Shown: positions 31,050 through 45,037 of the stretch, one piece after another
Numbering within the stretch: the stretch's first letter is position 1
Layout of the letters: every line of letters begins with the position of its first letter
Assembly (NCBI GenBank): GCA_030749435.1
Contig: JASMKH010000011.1
Coordinates: 3,325-67,324, forward strand
Reading direction: 5' to 3'
Source: Phycisphaerales bacterium
Lineage (GTDB): Bacteria; Planctomycetota; Phycisphaerae; Phycisphaerales; SM1A02
Length of the DNA stretch: 64,000 nt
Translations under genes and position numbers: made by a program
Notes under the pieces: model-generated
The model's input: only the letters and a program-made list of their open reading frames with translations
The model's database searches: none
Told to the model about the DNA's origin: nothing

Positions 31050-32180
31050 ATGCCAACAGCCAACGCAACTCAGAACGCCGAGCCCCCGATGCCCACGCGG
31101 CGACGGGATCGGATTCTCATGTTGGGACGCCGCAAGGCCGGCAAGACGGTCTTCCTGGCGCGGCTCTATGAACAGGCATGGCGGGGCGGTGATGGACTGC
31201 ACATGCGGGCCGCCGAAGGCGCGATGCACGAACTGTGCATGGAAATCGTGGAGCAACTGCACCACGGCCAGTGGCCCGCCGCCACCGCGGGTTCGCTCTG
31301 CAGCGAGGTCGAGGTCACGTGGCTCGGCATGCAGGCCACCATGCTCATGCTCGACTACCCGGGCGAAGTGTTTCGCCAGGCATTCGTCGAAGGTGGGGGC
31401 GGCGCGCAGGCCGACGAGTTGATTGACCATCTCGACCATGCCGCTGCTGTGATCCTGCTCATTGACCCGGGCAATGTGCACGCGGGCTCCGCCCGCGAAG
31501 TGGTGGACGATGACTATGGAATGGTGCAGGCGGTGGACTACCTCCGCCGCAGCCCGGGCGGCACTCAAGTCCCCCTCGCCGTCGCGCTCACCAAGTGCGA
31601 CGAGCACGTGGGACTGGTTCGATCTGCCGGCGGGGCGCGGGGTTTCATCGAGTCGAAGATTCCGAACCTGACGCAGTACGGCGGCCGGATGCGCATTTTT
31701 GCGACGGCCGCGGTGCGGACCCGCGGCGATGCGCTCGGTCGTCCGGTCCCCAATACCCAGCACGAGCCAGCGGGCCTCTCCGACGCGTTGAAGTATTGCA
31801 TGAAGCACGTCGGCGCCGCCATGGCCCAAGCAGCGAGAAACAATCGGGAGGCGGCCCGCCGCGACGAGCTCAACAGGGCTGCCGCCCGTGACCGCCGCTT
31901 CGCCCAGCAGTCGTTTCGCAGGTGGGTCGGTTTTTGGGTGGCGATGGGGATCTTCGGTGTCGTCGTCATCGTCGTGGCATTGTTCGTTGCGTTCCGGGAG
32001 CCGCAGCCCACCGAGTCGATTGCACCTCCGGTCATGGCGCCGCCGGCTGAGGTGGTGCCAGTTCCAGAGCCTGAGCCAGTTCCAGAGCCAGAGCCAGTGC
32101 CCGAGCCCGAAGCCACCGAGGATCCGGGACCGCGTATCGGCAAACTCAAGCCTTCCACTGCTGGCGGAAGCGAACCGTGA
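31050..32180 (+). CDS. Membrane-anchored Ras-like small GTPase (locus gene A)
   Basis: G1 GRRKAGKT (31125-31148), G3 DYPGE, G4 TKCD. C-terminal TM WVGFWVAMGIFGVVVIVVALFVAF, then a (PVPEPE)3 tail. GGGAG sits 5 nt upstream of the ATG. Confidence 0.85.
   Translation: MPTANATQNAEPPMPTRRRDRILMLGRRKAGKTVFLARLYEQAWRGGDGLHMRAAEGAMHELCMEIVEQLHHGQWPAATAGSLCSEVEVTWLGMQATMLMLDYPGEVFRQAFVEGGGGAQADELIDHLDHAAAVILLIDPGNVHAGSAREVVDDDYGMVQAVDYLRRSPGGTQVPLAVALTKCDEHVGLVRSAGGARGFIESKIPNLTQYGGRMRIFATAAVRTRGDALGRPVPNTQHEPAGLSDALKYCMKHVGAAMAQAARNNREAARRDELNRAAARDRRFAQQSFRRWVGFWVAMGIFGVVVIVVALFVAFREPQPTESIAPPVMAPPAEVVPVPEPEPVPEPEPVPEPEATEDPGPRIGKLKPSTAGGSEP
32058..32111 (+). repeat. 3 x 18-nt in-frame tandem repeat encoding (PVPEPE)3 in the GTPase tail
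   Basis: ccagttccagagcctgag / ccagttccagagccagag / ccagtgcccgagcccgaa. Confidence 0.8.
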
Positions 32181-33871
32181 TCTTCGAGACGCACCTCATG
32201 GGTTCCGATGGGGGCTATGGGGAGCGGGCGTGGTCGGCCGGACTGAGTGAGCGAGAACGCCAGGCCCTTCGGGACGTCGATCTTGGACATCCCAACGTGC
32301 GCACACTTGAACTCGGATCGGTCATGCTGTTCGGTCGGCCCCTCCCGGCCGGGCGAATCGCAGTGACGGCATGCGTTGCCGGGCCGAACGATGAAGCCGG
32401 ACGGCGGACTGTCGAGTTCCGGTCCATCGTCATGGCACGAGCGGACTGGACCTGCCGCGCTCGGCACGACCCCCCGCAACTGCTCGACGCTGCGCTCTGG
32501 GAAGATCCGTCCTTCGAGCAGGGCCGGACGCTCAATGTCTCGCCGGGGACGGTTGATGAGGCCGATCCCTGCAGCGACGCCCGCCTGCTGGCAGCCGCGG
32601 TGCGGCTGGGCGTGGGGCCGATTCATCTGGTCCACGGCCCGCAGACCCACGCGGCCATGCTGGGCATGCTGAGCGCACTGTCCGATCATGAGGCCGGCAA
32701 TCTGCGATGGGGCCTTCGGCTCAATCGCCCGTCCGCCGATCTTGACGTGGCAACGCTCGACCCGGCAGCACCCACCGGCGGTGTCAGCCGCACAACGCTC
32801 AAGGCGCTCCGACACATCGTGGACGAAGCACGGGAGGAGGCTGCCCTCCATGCCTCCGGTGCGGACGCTGCAGCCAGTGGCAGCGACCTTCCCCGCGGCG
32901 GCCGCGGGTTGCGCGTGGCGAGCGGGGTGCTGATCGCACTGGCAGTGGTGCTGACCGGTTGGTTGATTTCGGCGCGTTGGCAGGATGCCCCGGTTCCGCC
33001 GCCAACCGACCCGCCCGCCCCGCACCTTCCGACCACCGTGCCGAGCCCGCCAGTCACCTCGAGGACCTCGCCGAAACCTCACCCCCCGCGGCCGCCCGCA
33101 GATCCGCAGCCACCACCGGACCCGGTTCCAGCAGCGCCGCCCAACTCGTCCACACCCTCCGAGCAGGAGGCCCCCCCAACGCCGGATCCCGCTGTTCCGA
33201 CGCCTGCGCCGCCCGAGATCCCGAGCGATCCGCGAGTCGTGGCCGATGCAATCGGGGCCTTCAACCGCGATGCATTCGATTGGTGCGAGCACGCCGCCAT
33301 GGGCACCCTGACCCGGTCGGTGCGTCGGCATTGCATCGATGCCGCCATCACCGAGTTCTACGACTCCACATCCGGGTGGACTGCCCAACTCGGCGATTCG
33401 TACCAGATGCCGGACGAACTCTCACTCTGCACCCTTCTCGAACGAGCACAACGCGCCGATGCACTCTTTGAGTGGATGGGCGGGGGGACTACGCCCCCAT
33501 GGGCCGACCTTGATGAGACGATGGAATGGCTCCGCGACATCCCCGAACGCCCGCAGTCGGTGTGGCTCGGGCAGGTGAACGATCGCATCACGGCCCTCCA
33601 GGACTGCCAGCGCAAACTGGCGACCTTCACCAAGTTCCTCGCCGCGGTGCAGACCCCGTGGCGTCACGCGCCGCAGGCACCGTGCTCGCTCGAGACGGCC
33701 GCCAGAGAACTCGCCTCCTACCAGGCCCCATGTGCGCCGGAAGCCGTCGCGCTGATCGCTGATCCGCCGGGCACCAGATGGCCCCTGCGAGACCTGCCAC
33801 TCAACTCGGTGGCGAAATCCTGGACATTTCTGCAACAACAACGCGATGCTGTGACGAACCCCAGAGAGTGA
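32177..33871 (+). CDS. Bitopic protein: cytoplasmic N-domain (paralogous to gene H), TM, Pro-rich spacer, Cys-containing C-domain (locus gene B)
   Basis: GTG 32177 overlaps the gene A TGA (GTGA). TM is VASGVLIALAVVLTGWLISA. About 90 aa of P-rich linker follows. The C-terminal ~200 aa contains 6 Cys. Confidence 0.8.
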   Translation: MIFETHLMGSDGGYGERAWSAGLSERERQALRDVDLGHPNVRTLELGSVMLFGRPLPAGRIAVTACVAGPNDEAGRRTVEFRSIVMARADWTCRARHDPPQLLDAALWEDPSFEQGRTLNVSPGTVDEADPCSDARLLAAAVRLGVGPIHLVHGPQTHAAMLGMLSALSDHEAGNLRWGLRLNRPSADLDVATLDPAAPTGGVSRTTLKALRHIVDEAREEAALHASGADAAASGSDLPRGGRGLRVASGVLIALAVVLTGWLISARWQDAPVPPPTDPPAPHLPTTVPSPPVTSRTSPKPHPPRPPADPQPPPDPVPAAPPNSSTPSEQEAPPTPDPAVPTPAPPEIPSDPRVVADAIGAFNRDAFDWCEHAAMGTLTRSVRRHCIDAAITEFYDSTSGWTAQLGDSYQMPDELSLCTLLERAQRADALFEWMGGGTTPPWADLDETMEWLRDIPERPQSVWLGQVNDRITALQDCQRKLATFTKFLAAVQTPWRHAPQAPCSLETAARELASYQAPCAPEAVALIADPPGTRWPLRDLPLNSVAKSWTFLQQQRDAVTNPRE

Positions 33872-38796: not shown

Positions 38797-41642
38797 GGCG
38801 CTACGAAGATAATCGCTGGAGCATGGGGCATGTTGCCAGGCCATGGCATTGACCCTGAGGCGTCGGAGGTATCGATGCGATGGAATCGCCAGCCCAGCGG
38901 TGCTCGCAGCAACACTTCGGCGGGCTGGTCGGCTCCGTCAGGCATGTCCATGGCTGCAACGTGCGGATTCTCGGAGTCCGGTCGAAGCAGGCCGCCGATG
39001 ATGCGAGGCTTCACGGCCTCGGAGAGTTCAGCCACTTCCCTTCGCCACGCCTGCCGGATCTCGTCGGATGATGGGGCGGCGTGCGGCGCATGCAGCGCCT
39101 GGCGGCGCACTTCATGCTGCGTTGGCGCGGCAGCCTTCGGCGCCAGTTTGACCCAATCGGCGGTGGTGGCACTCGGGGCTGGCGCCGAGAGTGTGTCCAA
39201 CCAATGCGCCCCGGCTTCAGCAATGCCCTCAGGCAAGGGCACGGCCGGGCTGCGCAGTGTGCTCCATACCGTGCGAAGAATGGCGAGCACGAGGAGCGGG
39301 TCCTGCTCATTGCACTGTTCAACAGCCTGCAGCAACGCTGCGGCCGCTTCGGGACTGCGGCTCCCTCTCCACGCTTCCAGCCCGCGGTGCAGGGCGGCGA
39401 CCGCGGGGGGCGGACTCGGTTCGACGCCGGCGAACATCACCCGCTGCGCCTCGTGTGTGAGGGGCTCAAGGTGGGATGCCGGAACTCGAAGATCCTGGCG
39501 GGACTCCAGACGCCGCCAGGAATGACCGGCCCGCTTCAGATAGTGGTACCCCGTTGGAGTCTCGGCGCGGTACAGATCGAGGAGCCCCGAGTCCTCAAGC
39601 GCCGCTTCGAGCGGGTCAAGATGGCGGGCGTCCTGCATGGCCGATGCGATGCGAACAAGCCGCTCGGCGGCGGATCGATACGGCGAGTGCATGCCGTGGG
39701 CGTCCAGATGTGACTGCAGGCTTGTCTTGGCGCCACCCACGAGCGGCAACTGGGGCGGCCCATCGGTGGACCACAATTGGGCCTCGGCGATTCCAGAGAG
39801 GCGCGATCGCCAGTCCTCGACAGCCCTGGCCGCCGAGGCGGCCTCGGCCGCGAGACCCCACTTCGCCCGGTCGCCCGCGTTGATGACGTCCGGATACTCG
39901 GAGATCAGCGTGTCCCACGCGCGAGCCCACATCGACTCGGTCGTCGGAACGTGGCTGAGTACCTTCAGGGCTCGTTGACCCTCCAGGAGGCGGTCGACCC
40001 TGGTCGTGGCGAGTGACCGCAACGTCGTGACGCGATGCTCCAGTGATTCGAGCCGCTGCTGCGTTGTGATCTCATCGGCGGCGGGCCGCAGGCGGATCGC
40101 CGCCAGCAGGCGAGCTGCCTCGCGGGCCTCGGCGAGACGGGCGGTCCAACCAGCCAGATCCCCAGGAAGGGGGTTGGGCTCCTTGAACAGCAACTCGATG
40201 GATGCCAACTCCTCCAGACGGGCGGTTCGCTCCTGTTGCAGCAGGGCCGTGCGGTGTGCCGTGGCCTGCTCGAGGGCCGCGTCGCTGGCCGCGTGCAGCG
40301 GTGGTGGAAGATCCGGCTGCACCCGGCGGAGCAGCGCGATGGCCGACTGGACGGATGCGAGCGAGTCGGCCTCACGCTCCAGCATCGACGTGGCTCGAAG
40401 GAGGGCGTCCTCCGCAGCAGTTCGACGGACGGCAAGGGTCTCGGATGCCCGCCCGATGGCGGCCCGGTGCGAAGCGATCTCAGCGACCTCCGTGAGGTGG
40501 GCTCGCTCGGCCTCAGCCCAGCAGTCCAGCGCCTCCGGGAGCCGGTCGGTCTGCAGCGCCGCAGCCATGCAATCCGAGAGGTACGTAATGGTTCGTGCTC
40601 GCTCAAGGCTCTGATGTCTGACGAATATGATCACCGCCAGTGCCGAGGCCACCGCGACGATGGCCAACGCGCCGACTGTGAATCGGCGGGCGCGGGCTCG
40701 CCGCTCCTCCGCGATTCGGTGGGCCACGCGGGTCTCGACGGTCCGCGGGATGGCAGCCCCGGCCTCGATCGCGGCGGCGTAGCGGCGTTCGATTCCATGC
40801 ACGGGCTCGAGTTCATCCAGCGACCGAACGAGGTCGATCACCAGATTGGCCTTGGCATCGACGCGGTCCCTGCGATCCTGATCGGCCTCGAGCCAACTTA
40901 GAACTCCTCGAATGGCGATGTCGGAGCCGCCACCGGATGCTTCGGCCTGCGTGCGCCACTGCTGCACGAGCTCGGCAGCGGCCCCTGCATCCATGGCGGC
41001 CCACGCCAGATGCAACGCACGTTCGATGGCATCGAGGCGGCTGCCGGCTGCTTGGCGGGCAAGGTCCGCCATCGCATCGTCCAACTGATGCAGGAGGTGC
41101 TGGCCGCTGGCGGTGAGGAACTCCATCCGCTGTGCCTGCCTGGACATTTCGGCAATGGCACGCTCGTCTCCAGACCCAAGGCAACGCTCCACTTCAGTTG
41201 ACCACAGTGCAACGGCCGCCTGTTCCAGCGGCTCGTGCACTCGTTTCCAAAGCGGGTTGTTGGGCTCGAGCAGCCGCAGGGCCCGTGCGGCAGCGAGACG
41301 CGCTGGGAGCGGCCGATCTTCCAGATTGGCCAGCGTCCACTGATCGACCTCGTCGCGGTGCAGCTGCCCGGTTGCGGGGATTCTGGCCAGCGCTTCGAGA
41401 GAAGGGGTGGCAGGGAGTCTCAAGCCGGACGGAAGTGGCTGCCCCGACTCGTGCAGGGTCAGGCACAGCCCAATGATGTTGCCCGCGTCGGCATTGAGCG
41501 CCGCTGCTGCGATGGCGTCCCCGCGAACCGCCCATGTGGCGCACCATGCGAGCGATCGGGAGACAGCCTCGGCTGCGGCCCGCAGCGTCACTTCGTCATC
41601 GGGCTGGCGCATCGCCGCTCGGAGTGTCTCGGCCTGATTCAT
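38793..41642 (-). CDS. 949-aa all-helical bitopic membrane protein (locus gene G)
   Basis: ATG 41642 overlaps the gene H TGA (ATGA). A single TM (FTVGALAIVAVASALAVIIFV, 40618-40680) splits a ~320-aa N-part from a ~600-aa C-part. Both parts are A/L/R/E-rich and helical. No catalytic motif seen. Confidence 0.8.
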   Translation of the reverse strand: MNQAETLRAAMRQPDDEVTLRAAAEAVSRSLAWCATWAVRGDAIAAAALNADAGNIIGLCLTLHESGQPLPSGLRLPATPSLEALARIPATGQLHRDEVDQWTLANLEDRPLPARLAAARALRLLEPNNPLWKRVHEPLEQAAVALWSTEVERCLGSGDERAIAEMSRQAQRMEFLTASGQHLLHQLDDAMADLARQAAGSRLDAIERALHLAWAAMDAGAAAELVQQWRTQAEASGGGSDIAIRGVLSWLEADQDRRDRVDAKANLVIDLVRSLDELEPVHGIERRYAAAIEAGAAIPRTVETRVAHRIAEERRARARRFTVGALAIVAVASALAVIIFVRHQSLERARTITYLSDCMAAALQTDRLPEALDCWAEAERAHLTEVAEIASHRAAIGRASETLAVRRTAAEDALLRATSMLEREADSLASVQSAIALLRRVQPDLPPPLHAASDAALEQATAHRTALLQQERTARLEELASIELLFKEPNPLPGDLAGWTARLAEAREAARLLAAIRLRPAADEITTQQRLESLEHRVTTLRSLATTRVDRLLEGQRALKVLSHVPTTESMWARAWDTLISEYPDVINAGDRAKWGLAAEAASAARAVEDWRSRLSGIAEAQLWSTDGPPQLPLVGGAKTSLQSHLDAHGMHSPYRSAAERLVRIASAMQDARHLDPLEAALEDSGLLDLYRAETPTGYHYLKRAGHSWRRLESRQDLRVPASHLEPLTHEAQRVMFAGVEPSPPPAVAALHRGLEAWRGSRSPEAAAALLQAVEQCNEQDPLLVLAILRTVWSTLRSPAVPLPEGIAEAGAHWLDTLSAPAPSATTADWVKLAPKAAAPTQHEVRRQALHAPHAAPSSDEIRQAWRREVAELSEAVKPRIIGGLLRPDSENPHVAAMDMPDGADQPAEVLLRAPLGWRFHRIDTSDASGSMPWPGNMPHAPAIIFVAP

Positions 41643-42463
41643 GGCTCGATTCCATTCCAGAGAATCAGCGCCAGCACCGCCACCAGGCCGATGATCACCA
41701 TCGGGATGATCCACGCGCGGCGCCGCTCCGGTGGTTCCAGTGAGAGAACCGCCGCCTCACCGGCTTCGGTGGCCGGCGCCTCGCGGGTATCCGCGGGCTC
41801 CGCTTCGGCCAGGTCCAGTACGCTCGCCGCGGCGGTTGGCTGTGACTCGGCCGAAAGGAGTCGCACCAGCACGCCATCGGTGAACGCCGCACCGCCGAGC
41901 AGGAAGGTGAGGTCCCATTGACGCTCGAGTGGAATCGCCTGTTCAAGTTGCCGCAACGCCTCGATCGCGTCGACGTCACGTGGGAGTCGGGCGATGAAGC
42001 CTGTCCCACGCAGCACGAGCGAGGCGAGGTGGTTGGCCCAGCGATCGTCGAGCGGGCCCGCGGGCGGGGCACCGACGCTGGCAGGCAGCCGAGGCATGTC
42101 ATGTCGGTCTGTGCCCGACCGCGAGGTGAGAAACCAGCCACTCTGCAGCAGCGACACCGGTCCGTAGTCGGGACGTTCGCCTGCCGGCAGCACCAGATGG
42201 TGCGCCACCCGACCGGGTCGATCGCCGGCTGCCCCGGGCGTGCGGGAGATTCGGGTCAACACGGAGTGCCAACCGCCCTCGATTCTCAGTGATCGATGGG
42301 CCACCAGCGGCGGCGTGTCGACAGGGGGGCTCATCACAAGCCCGGATCTGGCCTCAAGCGTTGCGGCATCCTCGGCCGAGAGATGCGGGCTCTTCCACAC
42401 CGTCGCAAAGCCGGGGACGCCTGCGGCGGTTTGGGCGGACCAGGTATGAATCAACTCATGCAT
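41639..42463 (-). CDS. Tail-anchored protein with an N-domain paralogous to gene B (GAP1-N-like?) (locus gene H)
   Basis: ATG 42463 overlaps the gene I end by 8 nt (ATGCATGA). MHELIHTWSAQTAAGVPGFATVWKSPHLS ... GDRPGRVAHHLVL. C-terminal TM AWIIPMVIIGLVAVLALILW. Confidence 0.8.
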   Translation of the reverse strand: MHELIHTWSAQTAAGVPGFATVWKSPHLSAEDAATLEARSGLVMSPPVDTPPLVAHRSLRIEGGWHSVLTRISRTPGAAGDRPGRVAHHLVLPAGERPDYGPVSLLQSGWFLTSRSGTDRHDMPRLPASVGAPPAGPLDDRWANHLASLVLRGTGFIARLPRDVDAIEALRQLEQAIPLERQWDLTFLLGGAAFTDGVLVRLLSAESQPTAAASVLDLAEAEPADTREAPATEAGEAAVLSLEPPERRRAWIIPMVIIGLVAVLALILWNGIEP

Positions 42464-43160
42464 GGGCAGCGGTGTCCTCGCGGAGGCCGGTTGCCAGGAG
42501 CAGTGCCGCGGCCATCGCTTCGGGTCCCTCTTCGACTTCGATGGCGCCGGAGTCGAGTGTGCCGCACCGCGCCAACGTCACGCGATTCGTGATCGAGATC
42601 AGCGGCGGTGGCGGCTGGCCCGACGCGGCCAGTTGAAGCGTGGTCGTTCCGGGCCGGGCAGGGGGGGCGTCAGTGCCTGCGCCAGCGAGCACGACCTCGG
42701 GCCCTCGGGGCGTGTCGGTCGTCGTCAGAAACACCGTGCGGTGCGACCCATCCGGAAAGGCAAGCATGCAGGCGGCGATATCAAGATCGGCCGTGGGCTG
42801 CGCGGCTGCAACCTGTGAGAGGATGATCTCCAGCGTGCTCAACCGCTGGCGGGCATGCGCGATCAGTTTGGTGCGGGTTGACGCGGCGTCGTCTCCAGTG
42901 AGTCGCACCAGGCCCGTCGCTGCGCTCGACCAGAGGCACTCGGGCCACGCTCGCCGGCATGCGGGGCAGGCCGGCTGAGGCGACCTGCCACCATCGGGAT
43001 CGACCGGGCAGCCGCCAGCATCGAACCGGGTGGGCATGAATCGCAGTTGCTGGTCCGATCCGAGCACCGGATCTCCGATGAGCGACGCCGAGGTCGCGAT
43101 GAATCGCGAATCGGTCGAGGACCCGCAGAATCCGCACCAGGGGCACGTGAAGTTCCTCAT
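42456..43160 (-). CDS. Cytoplasmic Zn-ribbon protein, possibly a degenerate (P-loop-less) GTPase-like paralogue (locus gene I)
   Basis: Start at ATG 43160; the longer ORF to 43220 would overlap tRNA-Arg. CPWCGFC ... CPAC Cys pairs. GLVRLTGDDAASTRT aligns loosely with the P-loop region of gene A but lacks GK[ST]. Confidence 0.7.
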   Translation of the reverse strand: MRNFTCPWCGFCGSSTDSRFIATSASLIGDPVLGSDQQLRFMPTRFDAGGCPVDPDGGRSPQPACPACRRAWPECLWSSAATGLVRLTGDDAASTRTKLIAHARQRLSTLEIILSQVAAAQPTADLDIAACMLAFPDGSHRTVFLTTTDTPRGPEVVLAGAGTDAPPARPGTTTLQLAASGQPPPPLISITNRVTLARCGTLDSGAIEVEEGPEAMAAALLLATGLREDTAAHA

Positions 43161-43213: not shown

Positions 43214-43287
43214 CGTCCACGGCAGGACTCGAACCTGCAACCTTCGGCTTCGGAGGCCGACGCTCTATCCAATTGAGCTACGTGGAC
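43214..43287 (-). tRNA. tRNA-Arg (anticodon CCG)
   Basis: Hand-folded cloverleaf: acceptor GTCCACG/CGTGGAC, D-arm GCTC..GAGC, anticodon stem TCGGC/GCCGA with loop CTCCGAA, T-arm GCAGG-TTCGAGT-CCTGC, discriminator G. CCA is not encoded. Confidence 0.9.
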
Positions 43288-43450
43288 CGAAGCGAGGAGT
43301 GTACCCGTGGCTCGCCGCAGGAGGGTGCGACGCTTTCGGGCTCGCGGCGGCAATCGCCGAGGCGGGGCACGTCCGGATCGAAGCCCCAAACCACGCTGCG
43401 GTAGTATCTCGCCGGTGACCGATTCGAACCAGCCGGAACAGACTGCAGCG

Positions 43451-45037
43451 ATGCTCCGCCTCACGAGCGTTCGCGGACCCACTGTGCCCGCAGTGGAAGT
43501 GACCCGATCCGGCGGTGTCATCGGTCGCAGTTCGGCCTGCGAGGTGCGGCTGGTTGACGCCACGGTCTCGCGGCGGCATGCCGAGATTCGCTATCTGGGT
43601 GACCGGTGGATGCTGGTCGACCTCGGAGGCGCGAACGGCACGTGGCTCAATGATGTCCGGCTCGATGCCGAAACGGCAACGCCGCTGGCGCCCGGCGACC
43701 GAATCGGGGTCGGACCATGGGTGTTGCGGGTGGGCTCCTGGGCACCAACGACCATCGCCATGGCCGATGCGGATGCAAGCGAGGATGCGGCACTGATCCA
43801 GCCGCTGCAGCCCGATGCTGCCGGACAACTCGCGCACCACCGCCTTCAACTGGTGATCGACTGTGCCGGACGGATCAATGAGGCAGTGGACGAGCGGGAT
43901 CTGGCCCAGTCCCTGCTTGAGTCCGTGATCGAGGGAACGGGCTACTGCCGCGCGGCGCTCGTTCGTCTGGCTGGCGATGAAGAGGGTGTCGAGGTCCTCG
44001 GACGCCGCTCAAGCGATGACGGGCCCCCCGACCAATTCAGTCGAACACTCGTGACGCGGGCCTCGGCTGGCGAGTTTGTGACGCTTGCGGGCCAGCAGAC
44101 GGCGGACTGGGGCAGGAGCATCGCCGACCTGGCGATCCATTCGGCCATGTGCTGCCCGGTCCAGGTGGACGATCAGGTGGCGGCATGCCTGTACCTCGAC
44201 GCGCGAGGCAGCGAGGATCGGGTTGCCGACGACGCCGCTGGATTCTGCTACGCCCTGGCCAAGCTCGGCGGGCTCGCCATCGCCAACCTGCGACGACGAT
44301 CGATGCAGGACCGGCAGCGAGAGATGGACGCCGAGATGGCCGCCGCTCGCGAGGCCCAGCAACTGATGGTGCCGCTCAAACCAGCGGAACTCGTCGGGTT
44401 GGACTATGCAGTCGAGTTTCACCCGGGCCGGGTCGCCTCGGGCGATCTCTTCGATGTGGTGGAACTCTCGGGCGGTCGCATTGCGGTGATGCTTGGAGAC
44501 GTGTCGGGCAAGGGCGTGGGCGCCGCCATCCTCATGGCTGCTGCGCAGGCCTTTCTTCACTCGGCCCTGAGCCGGCACGAGCACCCGAATGACGCGGTGG
44601 CGGAGTTGAATGACTTCGTGAGGGAGCGAAGTGCGGCCAACCGATTCCTGACGCTGTGGGTGGGCGTCTTTCATCCCGGGGGAACCCTGGAGTATGTGGA
44701 CGCGGGCCACGGGTACTGGGCCCACTGCCGGGCGGGCGGAGCCGAAATCCATTCCGCCGCGGTCTCGCCCCTGGTCGGCGCTCTGGAGGACATCGAGTTC
44801 GTGGCGACGAAGATCGACGTGACCTCCGGCGACCGCATTGTGCTGATGACAGACGGCGTGCCCGAGCAGCCCGATCGCGAAGGGGCGCCGTTTGGGCTCG
44901 ACCGAATCCTCGAGGTGCTCGAGCGGACGCGGACATGCCAGGAGGATGTGCTTGAGTTACTCGCGGCGGTTCGGGCGTGGGCGGGGTCCGATGCGCTCGC
45001 CGATGACACGACCGTTGCGAGTGTGGCAGCCCGGTGA
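43451..45037 (+). CDS. FHA-GAF-PP2C (SpoIIE-type) serine/threonine phosphatase
   Basis: FHA: GVIGRSSACEVRLVDATVSRRHAEI...LVDLGGANGTWLN. Central GAF-like region. PP2C/SpoIIE: GDLFDVV..., MLGDVSGKGVGAAILMA, DAGH, LMTDGV. Start at ATG 43451 is uncertain. Confidence 0.85.
   Translation: MLRLTSVRGPTVPAVEVTRSGGVIGRSSACEVRLVDATVSRRHAEIRYLGDRWMLVDLGGANGTWLNDVRLDAETATPLAPGDRIGVGPWVLRVGSWAPTTIAMADADASEDAALIQPLQPDAAGQLAHHRLQLVIDCAGRINEAVDERDLAQSLLESVIEGTGYCRAALVRLAGDEEGVEVLGRRSSDDGPPDQFSRTLVTRASAGEFVTLAGQQTADWGRSIADLAIHSAMCCPVQVDDQVAACLYLDARGSEDRVADDAAGFCYALAKLGGLAIANLRRRSMQDRQREMDAEMAAAREAQQLMVPLKPAELVGLDYAVEFHPGRVASGDLFDVVELSGGRIAVMLGDVSGKGVGAAILMAAAQAFLHSALSRHEHPNDAVAELNDFVRERSAANRFLTLWVGVFHPGGTLEYVDAGHGYWAHCRAGGAEIHSAAVSPLVGALEDIEFVATKIDVTSGDRIVLMTDGVPEQPDREGAPFGLDRILEVLERTRTCQEDVLELLAAVRAWAGSDALADDTTVASVAAR

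Follow-up and report, generated by a model that had tools for sequence, protein, structure and literature searches.

A zinc-ribbon relative of the DO-GTPases, stripped of nucleotide-binding motifs, at the head of a GAP1-N2 operon in a Phycisphaerales bacterium

The window considered here is a stretch of 64,000 nucleotides from a Phycisphaerales bacterium (assembly GCA_030749435.1, contig JASMKH010000011.1, positions 3,325 to 67,324 of the forward strand); all coordinates below are those of the window. Two of its genes raise the question that concerns us. Gene A, on the plus strand, encodes a GTPase with its motifs in place. Gene I, on the minus strand, encodes a zinc ribbon followed by a segment that resembles the start of a GTPase whose phosphate-binding loop (P-loop) has decayed. 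An earlier note, made from the sequence alone, proposed that the two are an active and an inactive member of a pair. Is gene I, then, a dead GTPase, where did it come from, and what would such a protein do at the head of an operon? The answer that we favor, and to which we assign a probability of about 0.72, is that gene I encodes a pseudo-GTPase orthologous to the zinc-ribbon DO-GTPase2 proteins, acting as a nucleotide-independent subunit and leaving the switching to A. The features on which the argument turns are these:

42456..43160, minus strand: gene I, 234 amino acids, putative zinc-ribbon pseudo-GTPase and degenerate DO-GTPase2 orthologue (from translation, orthologues and hhalign)
42918..43160, minus strand: zinc-ribbon module, residues 1–81, two CxxC knuckles around a strongly conserved insert of ~55 amino acids
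43134..43145, minus strand: first CxxC knuckle, C6-P-W-C9
42957..42968, minus strand: second CxxC knuckle, C65-P-A-C68
42834..42917, minus strand: strand 1, dead P-loop and helix 1 (residues 82–109), the loop 2–3 residues shorter than in intact forms
42873..42896, minus strand: P-loop relic GDDAASTR, at the site where intact orthologues have GxxxxGKS
42459..42833, minus strand: remnant sheet region, residues 110–234, six strands and one C-terminal helix in the AlphaFold2 (AF2) model, without Walker B or G4
42492..42524, minus strand: C-terminal helix, residues 213–223, which MAFFT pairs with the W-x-x-V-P-L-L helix that ends intact GTPases
31050..32180, plus strand: gene A, the live DO-GTPase of the locus (GRRKAGKT, DYPGE, TKCD; from Pfam and motifs)

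Relatives of gene I and the loss of GTPase motifs

Word-indexed homologue searching returned two to four relatives of gene I, and the remainder had to be sought exhaustively. HMMER, run against 1.8 billion representatives, yielded 310 hits, among them a small set of ~235 amino acids (P0003, P0004, P0005, P0006 and P0008) that match gene I from end to end. We refer to these as ‘short forms’. Of 301 Phycisphaerae genomes searched in six frames, 50 gave matches, and nearly all of the strong ones lie within open frames of 436–693 codons in which the ribbon is followed directly by a strand and an intact P-loop (e.g. GSPGAGKS or GAPSSGKS). These ‘long forms’, ~400–500 amino acids in length, are intact zinc-ribbon GTPases. 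All ten that were examined have GxxxxGKS, DNAGE and xK[AS]D, and P0009 and P0028 match the Pfam DO-GTPase2 model at 30.3 and 37.6 bits, respectively (cut-off 27).

The zinc ribbon is common to both forms. Its cysteine pairs in gene I, C6-x2-C9 and C65-x2-C68, are separated by 55 residues, and in an alignment of 39 short and long relatives C6, C9, D30, G34, R40, F41, D54, A64, C65 and C68 are invariant. Four cysteines unchanged in 39 sequences are no chance pattern, and the split ribbon that had been read from gene I by itself stands. Gene I has the N-terminal zinc ribbon common among DO-GTPases, with a predicted metal site. The ribbon is also the sole part left in relatives of 87 and 98 amino acids, to which we return.

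Homology extends beyond the ribbon, in two steps. Compared by hhalign with 29 long forms, the short forms match with a probability of 99.5% (E 1e-22) over residues 2–120, from the ribbon through strand 1, the P-loop site and helix 1 to the first part of the following strand. The long forms, in turn, match the gene A family with a probability of 97.6% (E 3.3e-12) over the whole G domain, to its last helix. Because both matches hold, gene I is related to A via the long forms, and a P-loop-dead relative of the locus GTPase does follow the ribbon, as the earlier note supposed. That note had also paired the strand-1 and helix-1 segments of I and A by eye, without GK[ST] in the former. The pairing is correct: the intact zinc-ribbon GTPases align with the ILMLGRRKAGKT segment of gene A and, through their strand 1, P-loop and helix 1, with G83–L107 of gene I. 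Its second pairing, of CMLAFPDGS with the Walker-B segment of A, is returned only as a non-significant alignment at low stringency (E 0.22), and remains a guess.

At the P-loop, hhalign places G89-D-D-(gap of three)-A-A-S opposite G-a-P-x-S-G-K-S. None of seven short forms has GK[ST] at this site, and the site differs in every one of them; not being conserved, it holds no substitute motif. D-x-x-G-E, the Walker B motif with the family glutamate, occurs as DNAGE in the long forms and as D[YF]xGE in the A family, and is absent from gene I. The G4 motif, xK[AS]D, present in 10 of 10 long forms examined, is absent as well. Since the P-loop is shortened and without GK[ST], and DNAGE and xK[AS]D are lost, gene I would, as far as its sequence tells, neither bind nor hydrolyze GTP in the canonical way. 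No Pfam family matches it at E ≤ 0.1, and hence neither DO-GTPase model does (PF19993/PF19975); NCBIfam has nothing for it, and the short-form profile, run against PDB sequences, returned no match below E 0.9. Gene A exceeds the Pfam cut-off of 27 bits for both DO-GTPase2 (33.1 bits) and DO-GTPase1 (31.8 bits), and its motifs are intact in 12 orthologues. The surmise that the locus holds one live and one dead GTPase, and that it belongs with DO-GTPase1/2, agrees with these results: A exceeds the Pfam thresholds, the long orthologues of I match DO-GTPase2, and the motifs of I itself are gone.

Two metagenomic relatives deserve mention. P0015 (372 amino acids) is P-loop-dead, with TGSGNPTP at the P-loop site, and has a G domain of near full size. 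It seems to represent an independent inactivation, and inactivation seems to be recurrent in the family. It does not serve as a bridge: it matches the long forms (E 4.6e-11) and not the short remnant. P0012 (367 amino acids) shares the zinc ribbon and the start of the P-loop, but continues into an AAA_24 domain (43 bits) in place of the DO-GTPase body; it reflects either chimeric assembly or a genuine exchange of domains.

Operon, orthology and reading frame

Gene I opens a minus-strand chain of overlapping genes, I, H, G, F, E and D, in which G encodes a helical protein of ~950 amino acids and F a Pfam MotA_ExbB match. Convergent with this chain is the plus-strand operon A, B, C, the last of which has a vWA domain. 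In both operons a GAP1-N2 gene lies directly downstream of the GTPase-related one: I overlaps H, and A is followed by B, which falls below the Pfam cut-off. The neighbors are:

41639..42463, minus strand: gene H, tail-anchored GAP1-N2 protein (Pfam GAP1-N2, 35.6 bits, cut-off 24), presumed direct partner of gene I
42456..42463, minus strand: overlap of 8 nucleotides (ATGCATGA) between the gene I stop and the gene H start
32177..33871, plus strand: gene B, second GAP1-N2-like protein (16.8 bits, below the cut-off), paired with A
43214..43287, minus strand: tRNA-Arg(CCG), 53 nucleotides upstream of gene I on the same strand
43307-45037, plus strand: gene for an FHA-GAF-PP2C (SpoIIE) phosphatase, divergent from gene I

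The operon, too, marks gene I as an orthologue of the long forms. Long forms head H-G-F-E-D operons in two genomes (G151, locus L028, and G148, locus L037). In a third, G278 (L027), H and F-E-D are detected behind the intact GTPase, and G is not. Short forms head the same operon in six loci. The states of gene I can be set out as follows:

G278, G151 and G148: I is an intact zinc-ribbon GTPase; same operon; A-type GTPase present
Window genome, G000: I has 234 amino acids and appears dead; same operon; A-type GTPase present
G242 (L031): I has 157 amino acids, its C-terminal part lost; same operon; A-type GTPase present
G179 (L032): I has 98 amino acids, ribbon only; H and part of G fit on the 6.3-kb contig; A-type GTPase present
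L026 (2198-2461): I has 87 amino acids, ribbon only; same operon; A not on the contig

Gene A was thus found in three of the three whole genomes with a reduced I that were searched (G000, G179 and G242). In the window genome the long-form profile matches gene I and nothing else (E 4.7e-24, profile positions 13–117), and no other zinc-ribbon DO-GTPase occurs in that genome, which is 84% complete. Gene I is a degenerate orthologue of a separate zinc-ribbon DO-GTPase2 lineage and no recent copy of A. Because the operon order and A are kept with an intact I elsewhere, and because the window genome has no second zinc-ribbon DO-GTPase, the ancestral state was two live GTPases, each with a GAP1-N2 partner, of which the zinc-ribbon one died in this clade of marine Phycisphaerales. 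The intact zinc-ribbon DO-GTPases of two further genomes, G109 and G186 (L029 and L030), adjoin two vWA-domain genes. No MotA-like gene occurs in the stretches fetched around them, and no A-type GTPase was found in those genomes, so that one and the same GTPase has another gene neighborhood within this family of genomes.

The reading frame of gene I differs from the public annotation. The public call (P0002, 150 amino acids, 42456-42908) starts at V85 and leaves out the zinc ribbon, although no other part of the protein is so well conserved. The start is the ATG at 43160: every homologue opens with M-x-x-x-[TI]-C-P-W-C. A GTG at 43220 was considered as the start and ruled out, as the frame would run into the tRNA gene. 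The public call of the locus is corrected accordingly. At the other end of the gene, the overlap of the I stop with the H start is kept in the five intact short-form loci (L021–L025) and in L026; overlaps of 4–11 nucleotides with the GAP1-N2 gene occur in the long-form loci L027, L028 and L030, possibly L037, and the reduced loci L031 and L032. Its retention across short forms, ribbon-only forms and several of the long ones speaks for the synthesis of I and H being coupled, and accounts for the conserved C-terminal [HD]-A of the short forms.

Six loci from species-representative genomes have a common order: the FHA-PP2C gene, tRNA-Arg, then I, H, G, F, E and D, with C and B on the opposite strand. 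The tRNA-Arg gene is kept in L022–L026 and L031, at 22–206 nucleotides from the gene I start; no tRNA occurs in the stretches fetched around the long-form genes of G278 and G151. The gap between tRNA-Arg and gene I contains no sigma-70-like promoter, and the I operon may be transcribed from the tRNA promoter and freed by tRNA processing. The phosphatase gene is syntenic in all of the reduced-form loci, at 63–85% identity. Its frame, as listed, starts only 20 nucleotides from tRNA-Arg, and the true start is probably downstream of 43307, since homology begins only at about residues 26–44. Some intact zinc-ribbon DO-GTPases have an N-terminal FHA domain, with or without GYF (P0017 and P0020). This co-occurrence hints at a phospho-threonine link to the zinc-ribbon DO-GTPase.

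Predicted fold, selection and competing explanations

What, then, are residues 82–234? The AF2 model of gene I, built on the 39-sequence alignment, has a predicted local distance difference test score (pLDDT) of 90.8 and a predicted template modeling score (pTM) of 0.85. After the ribbon it shows a helix (74–78), a strand (82–88), a three-residue loop, a helix (92–109), six strands and a final helix (213–223). In the model of an intact orthologue, P0009 (pLDDT 83.5), strands and helices alternate throughout; its strand 100–107 is followed by a five-residue loop and by helix 113–126, which starts at the P-loop lysine. Relative to such a protein, gene I lacks ~200 G-domain residues, including all helices between helix 1 and the last one, so that its model is without helices 2–4 of a TRAFAC-type G domain; what it retains is the zinc-ribbon module, almost unchanged, and a compact sheet with two helices.

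The earlier note had suggested that a structure prediction be searched for a P-loop NTPase-like fold after the ribbon, and the predicted fold is in keeping with one. When the gene I model is compared by VIA-align with all of the PDB, the top 31 rows are almost all GTPase G domains, matched at Z 5.0–6.6 with root-mean-square deviations of 3.4–5.2 and 100–127 residues aligned, from model residues 77–230. The best is the G domain of AAGAB (PDB 9dds; Z 6.6, deviation 4.1, 113 residues aligned), and others include Rab3C, YcjX, Gem, Era, Der and MnmE. The intact orthologue matches many of the same chains at Z 11–14. For the gene I model Foldseek found nothing in the PDB at E ≤ 0.001, only weak resemblance to Rab (template modeling scores, TM, of 0.28–0.41) and poor resemblance to uridine phosphorylase. 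Hits from the ESM Atlas, by feature (below 0.9, PemK toxins) and by structure (TM below 0.35), were taken as noise.

Several results weigh against the interpretation of gene I as a pseudo-GTPase subunit. The direct profile alignment of A against I, which had been proposed as a check, is non-significant: short forms and the gene A family match with an hhalign probability of 0.13%. Profile comparison of residues 112–234 with the long-form G domain and with the A family detects nothing significant (probability <1%), and region 82–234 by itself also stays below 1%, with a P of only 0.09; local, global and low-stringency modes were used for both. With Z <8 the structural matches are middling, and the same list includes CheY-like receiver domains at Z 4.8–5.0. 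The single-sequence model of gene I in the ESM Atlas is poor (pTM 0.23), and the AF2 fold is no independent witness, because its alignment contained long forms. Finally, the remnant is dispensable in some lineages, as L026 and G179 have lost it and kept the operon. Beyond residue ~120, homology rests on predicted structure and gene position and not on sequence, and the G-domain descent of residues 110–234 is probable, not proven.

The last of these points invites a different explanation, which we consider unlikely: that the zinc ribbon alone is functional, as an adaptor of ~80 amino acids for GAP1-N2, and that residues 82–234 are a tolerated tail, slowly eroding. The relatives of 157 (G242), 98 (G179) and 87 (L026) amino acids all keep the ribbon and the operon. 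In a tree of the MotA-like F proteins the window, L021, L022, L025 and L026 form one clade (support 97/95) within which L026 is nested, and the loss of the whole remnant in L026, from within a clade of 235-residue forms, is therefore secondary. In deep comparisons the remnant changes ~3 times faster than the ribbon (dN, the non-synonymous distance, being about 0.6 versus 0.2), and only four remnant positions are invariant among five short forms. Selection has, however, held the remnant open. The frame is intact at 234–241 amino acids in L021–L025 and P0004 (235 amino acids), at 31–50% identity, so that ~150 codons stay open in six further sequences despite saturation. Synonymous sites are saturated between most short-form pairs, and in the one unsaturated pair, L023/L024, the ratio of non-synonymous to synonymous change (dN/dS) is 0.25 for the remnant, as low as that of the ribbon (0.33). 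The model, too, is compact and confident for a predicted structure. Judged by these comparisons, gene I is a real, conserved gene under purifying selection.

According to a second alternative, which strikes us as improbable, residues 110–234 do not derive from a G domain at all: an unrelated small alpha/beta domain replaced the GTPase after helix 1. The want of significant similarity past residue ~120 is what this would predict, and flavodoxin-like receiver domains, at the Z scores given above, do nearly as well as G domains. The structural list is dominated by G domains nonetheless, many of its chains being common to the list of the intact orthologue; the alignment crosses unbroken from ribbon to strand 1 and on through helix 1; the helix at the C-terminus pairs with the one that ends the long forms; and the 157-residue form of G242 still has GPGGLTKA where the P-loop would lie, apparently an intermediate. 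Most improbable is that gene I is a pseudogene or goes unexpressed, yielding the 150-residue product from V85 or none, as the public call might imply: the homologues all start at the M-x-x-x-[TI]-C-P-W-C position, the ribbon that the call omits is the best conserved part, the overlap with the H start is conserved, and the dN/dS values of both parts, together with the intact frames, are grounds to reject a pseudogene or a frame that is not a gene.

If gene I is a pseudo-GTPase, as we favor, its mode of action might be as follows. It would be a fixed, nucleotide-blind subunit whose output is tied to that of the GAP1-N2 protein H, at a set ratio, by the overlap of its stop codon with the H start codon. 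The ribbon module, which is never lost, most likely docks H. The ribbon, and perhaps a residual face of the G domain, would hold H and possibly A at a membrane complex of G with the MotA/ExbB-type F-E-D proteins, and the sheet that remains, together with helix 1 and the last helix, may still provide the surface by which an intact DO-GTPase would meet its paralogue or GAP1. All nucleotide switching would be left to the live GTPase A, with its own GAP1-N2 partner, B. A role for gene I as regulator is something that we infer from this arrangement.

We advance tentatively, as a possibility, a broader proposal: that the GTPase has been reduced stepwise within a constant machine, from ~400–500 residues and live, to 235 and dead, to 157, and to a ribbon of 87–98, the ribbon being the essential organizer that docks GAP1-N2. 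Were this so, the 235-residue form would amount to half a G domain, pared to the minimum and kept by selection as a surface for binding; two-GTPase DO systems would be asymmetric heterodimers in which one nucleotide site is dispensable; and there would be a first concrete, testable model of how DO-GTPase/GAP1 is wired to a MotA/ExbB-type motor. Either way, nature has performed an experiment here, in presenting the same operon with a live zinc-ribbon GTPase, with a shrunken and apparently dead one, or with the ribbon only. For experimenters this means that the zinc ribbon should be retained, that the system can do without the second nucleotide site, and that I-H and I-A are the first pairs of interest.

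Comparison with known systems

Systems of DO-GTPases and GAP1 proteins are widespread, and were predicted computationally in 2020. According to Kaur et al. (2020; PMC7159879), DO-GTPases often occur as two paralogues and are typically encoded just upstream of GAP1; an N-terminal zinc ribbon is present in 60% of them and is usual in GAP1-N2 systems. A term search of that paper finds no mention of an inactive DO-GTPase or of an association with MotA/ExbB. We found no experimental study of DO-GTPase/GAP1 systems, and the family is named in few later papers, none of which reports experiments on it. The present locus is what Kaur et al. (PMC7159879) call a ‘GTPase-centric’ system, of the GAP1-N2 type. 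Like the DO-GTPases described there, gene I has an N-terminal zinc ribbon, overlaps a GAP1-N2 gene from upstream and is demonstrably homologous to members; a second, membrane-anchored paralogous GTPase is present, as in those systems, and occurrence in planctomycetes is likewise shared. Unlike them, gene I has no P-loop, no Walker B with its hallmark glutamate and no G4, is missing ~200 residues and matches no Pfam model. Unlike the GAP1-N2 systems of that paper, moreover, the locus has no FNIII-repeat protein that Pfam can detect: no FNIII family matches any of nine locus proteins at E ≤ 0.1, a search that divergent repeats could escape.

A second comparison is with the pseudoGTPases of eukaryotes, and particularly with the G domain of AAGAB. 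There, as predicted for gene I, a G-domain-like fold persists without nucleotide-binding motifs, and pseudoGTPases of the AAGAB type serve as binding modules. CENP-M and the pG domains of p190RhoGAP are further eukaryotic pseudoGTPases. Unlike AAGAB, gene I is bacterial and of an unrelated lineage, is far more reduced, with two long helices only, and is fused to a zinc ribbon.

Partnerships of active with inactive GTPases are also known: GMS-type IRGM regulators work with GKS-type IRG proteins, and septin hetero-oligomers include subunits that do not hydrolyze. By analogy, A and I would be paralogous GTPases acting together, of which one, gene I if our interpretation is correct, has an altered P-loop. 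The altered members of the IRGM and septin partnerships still bind nucleotide, whereas gene I probably does not, and its partnership with A is putative. Particular to this locus are the presence of the live paralogue beside gene I, the extreme stripping of the G domain, and the graded reductions within one clade; to the class of pseudoGTPases it would add a heavily reduced bacterial example.

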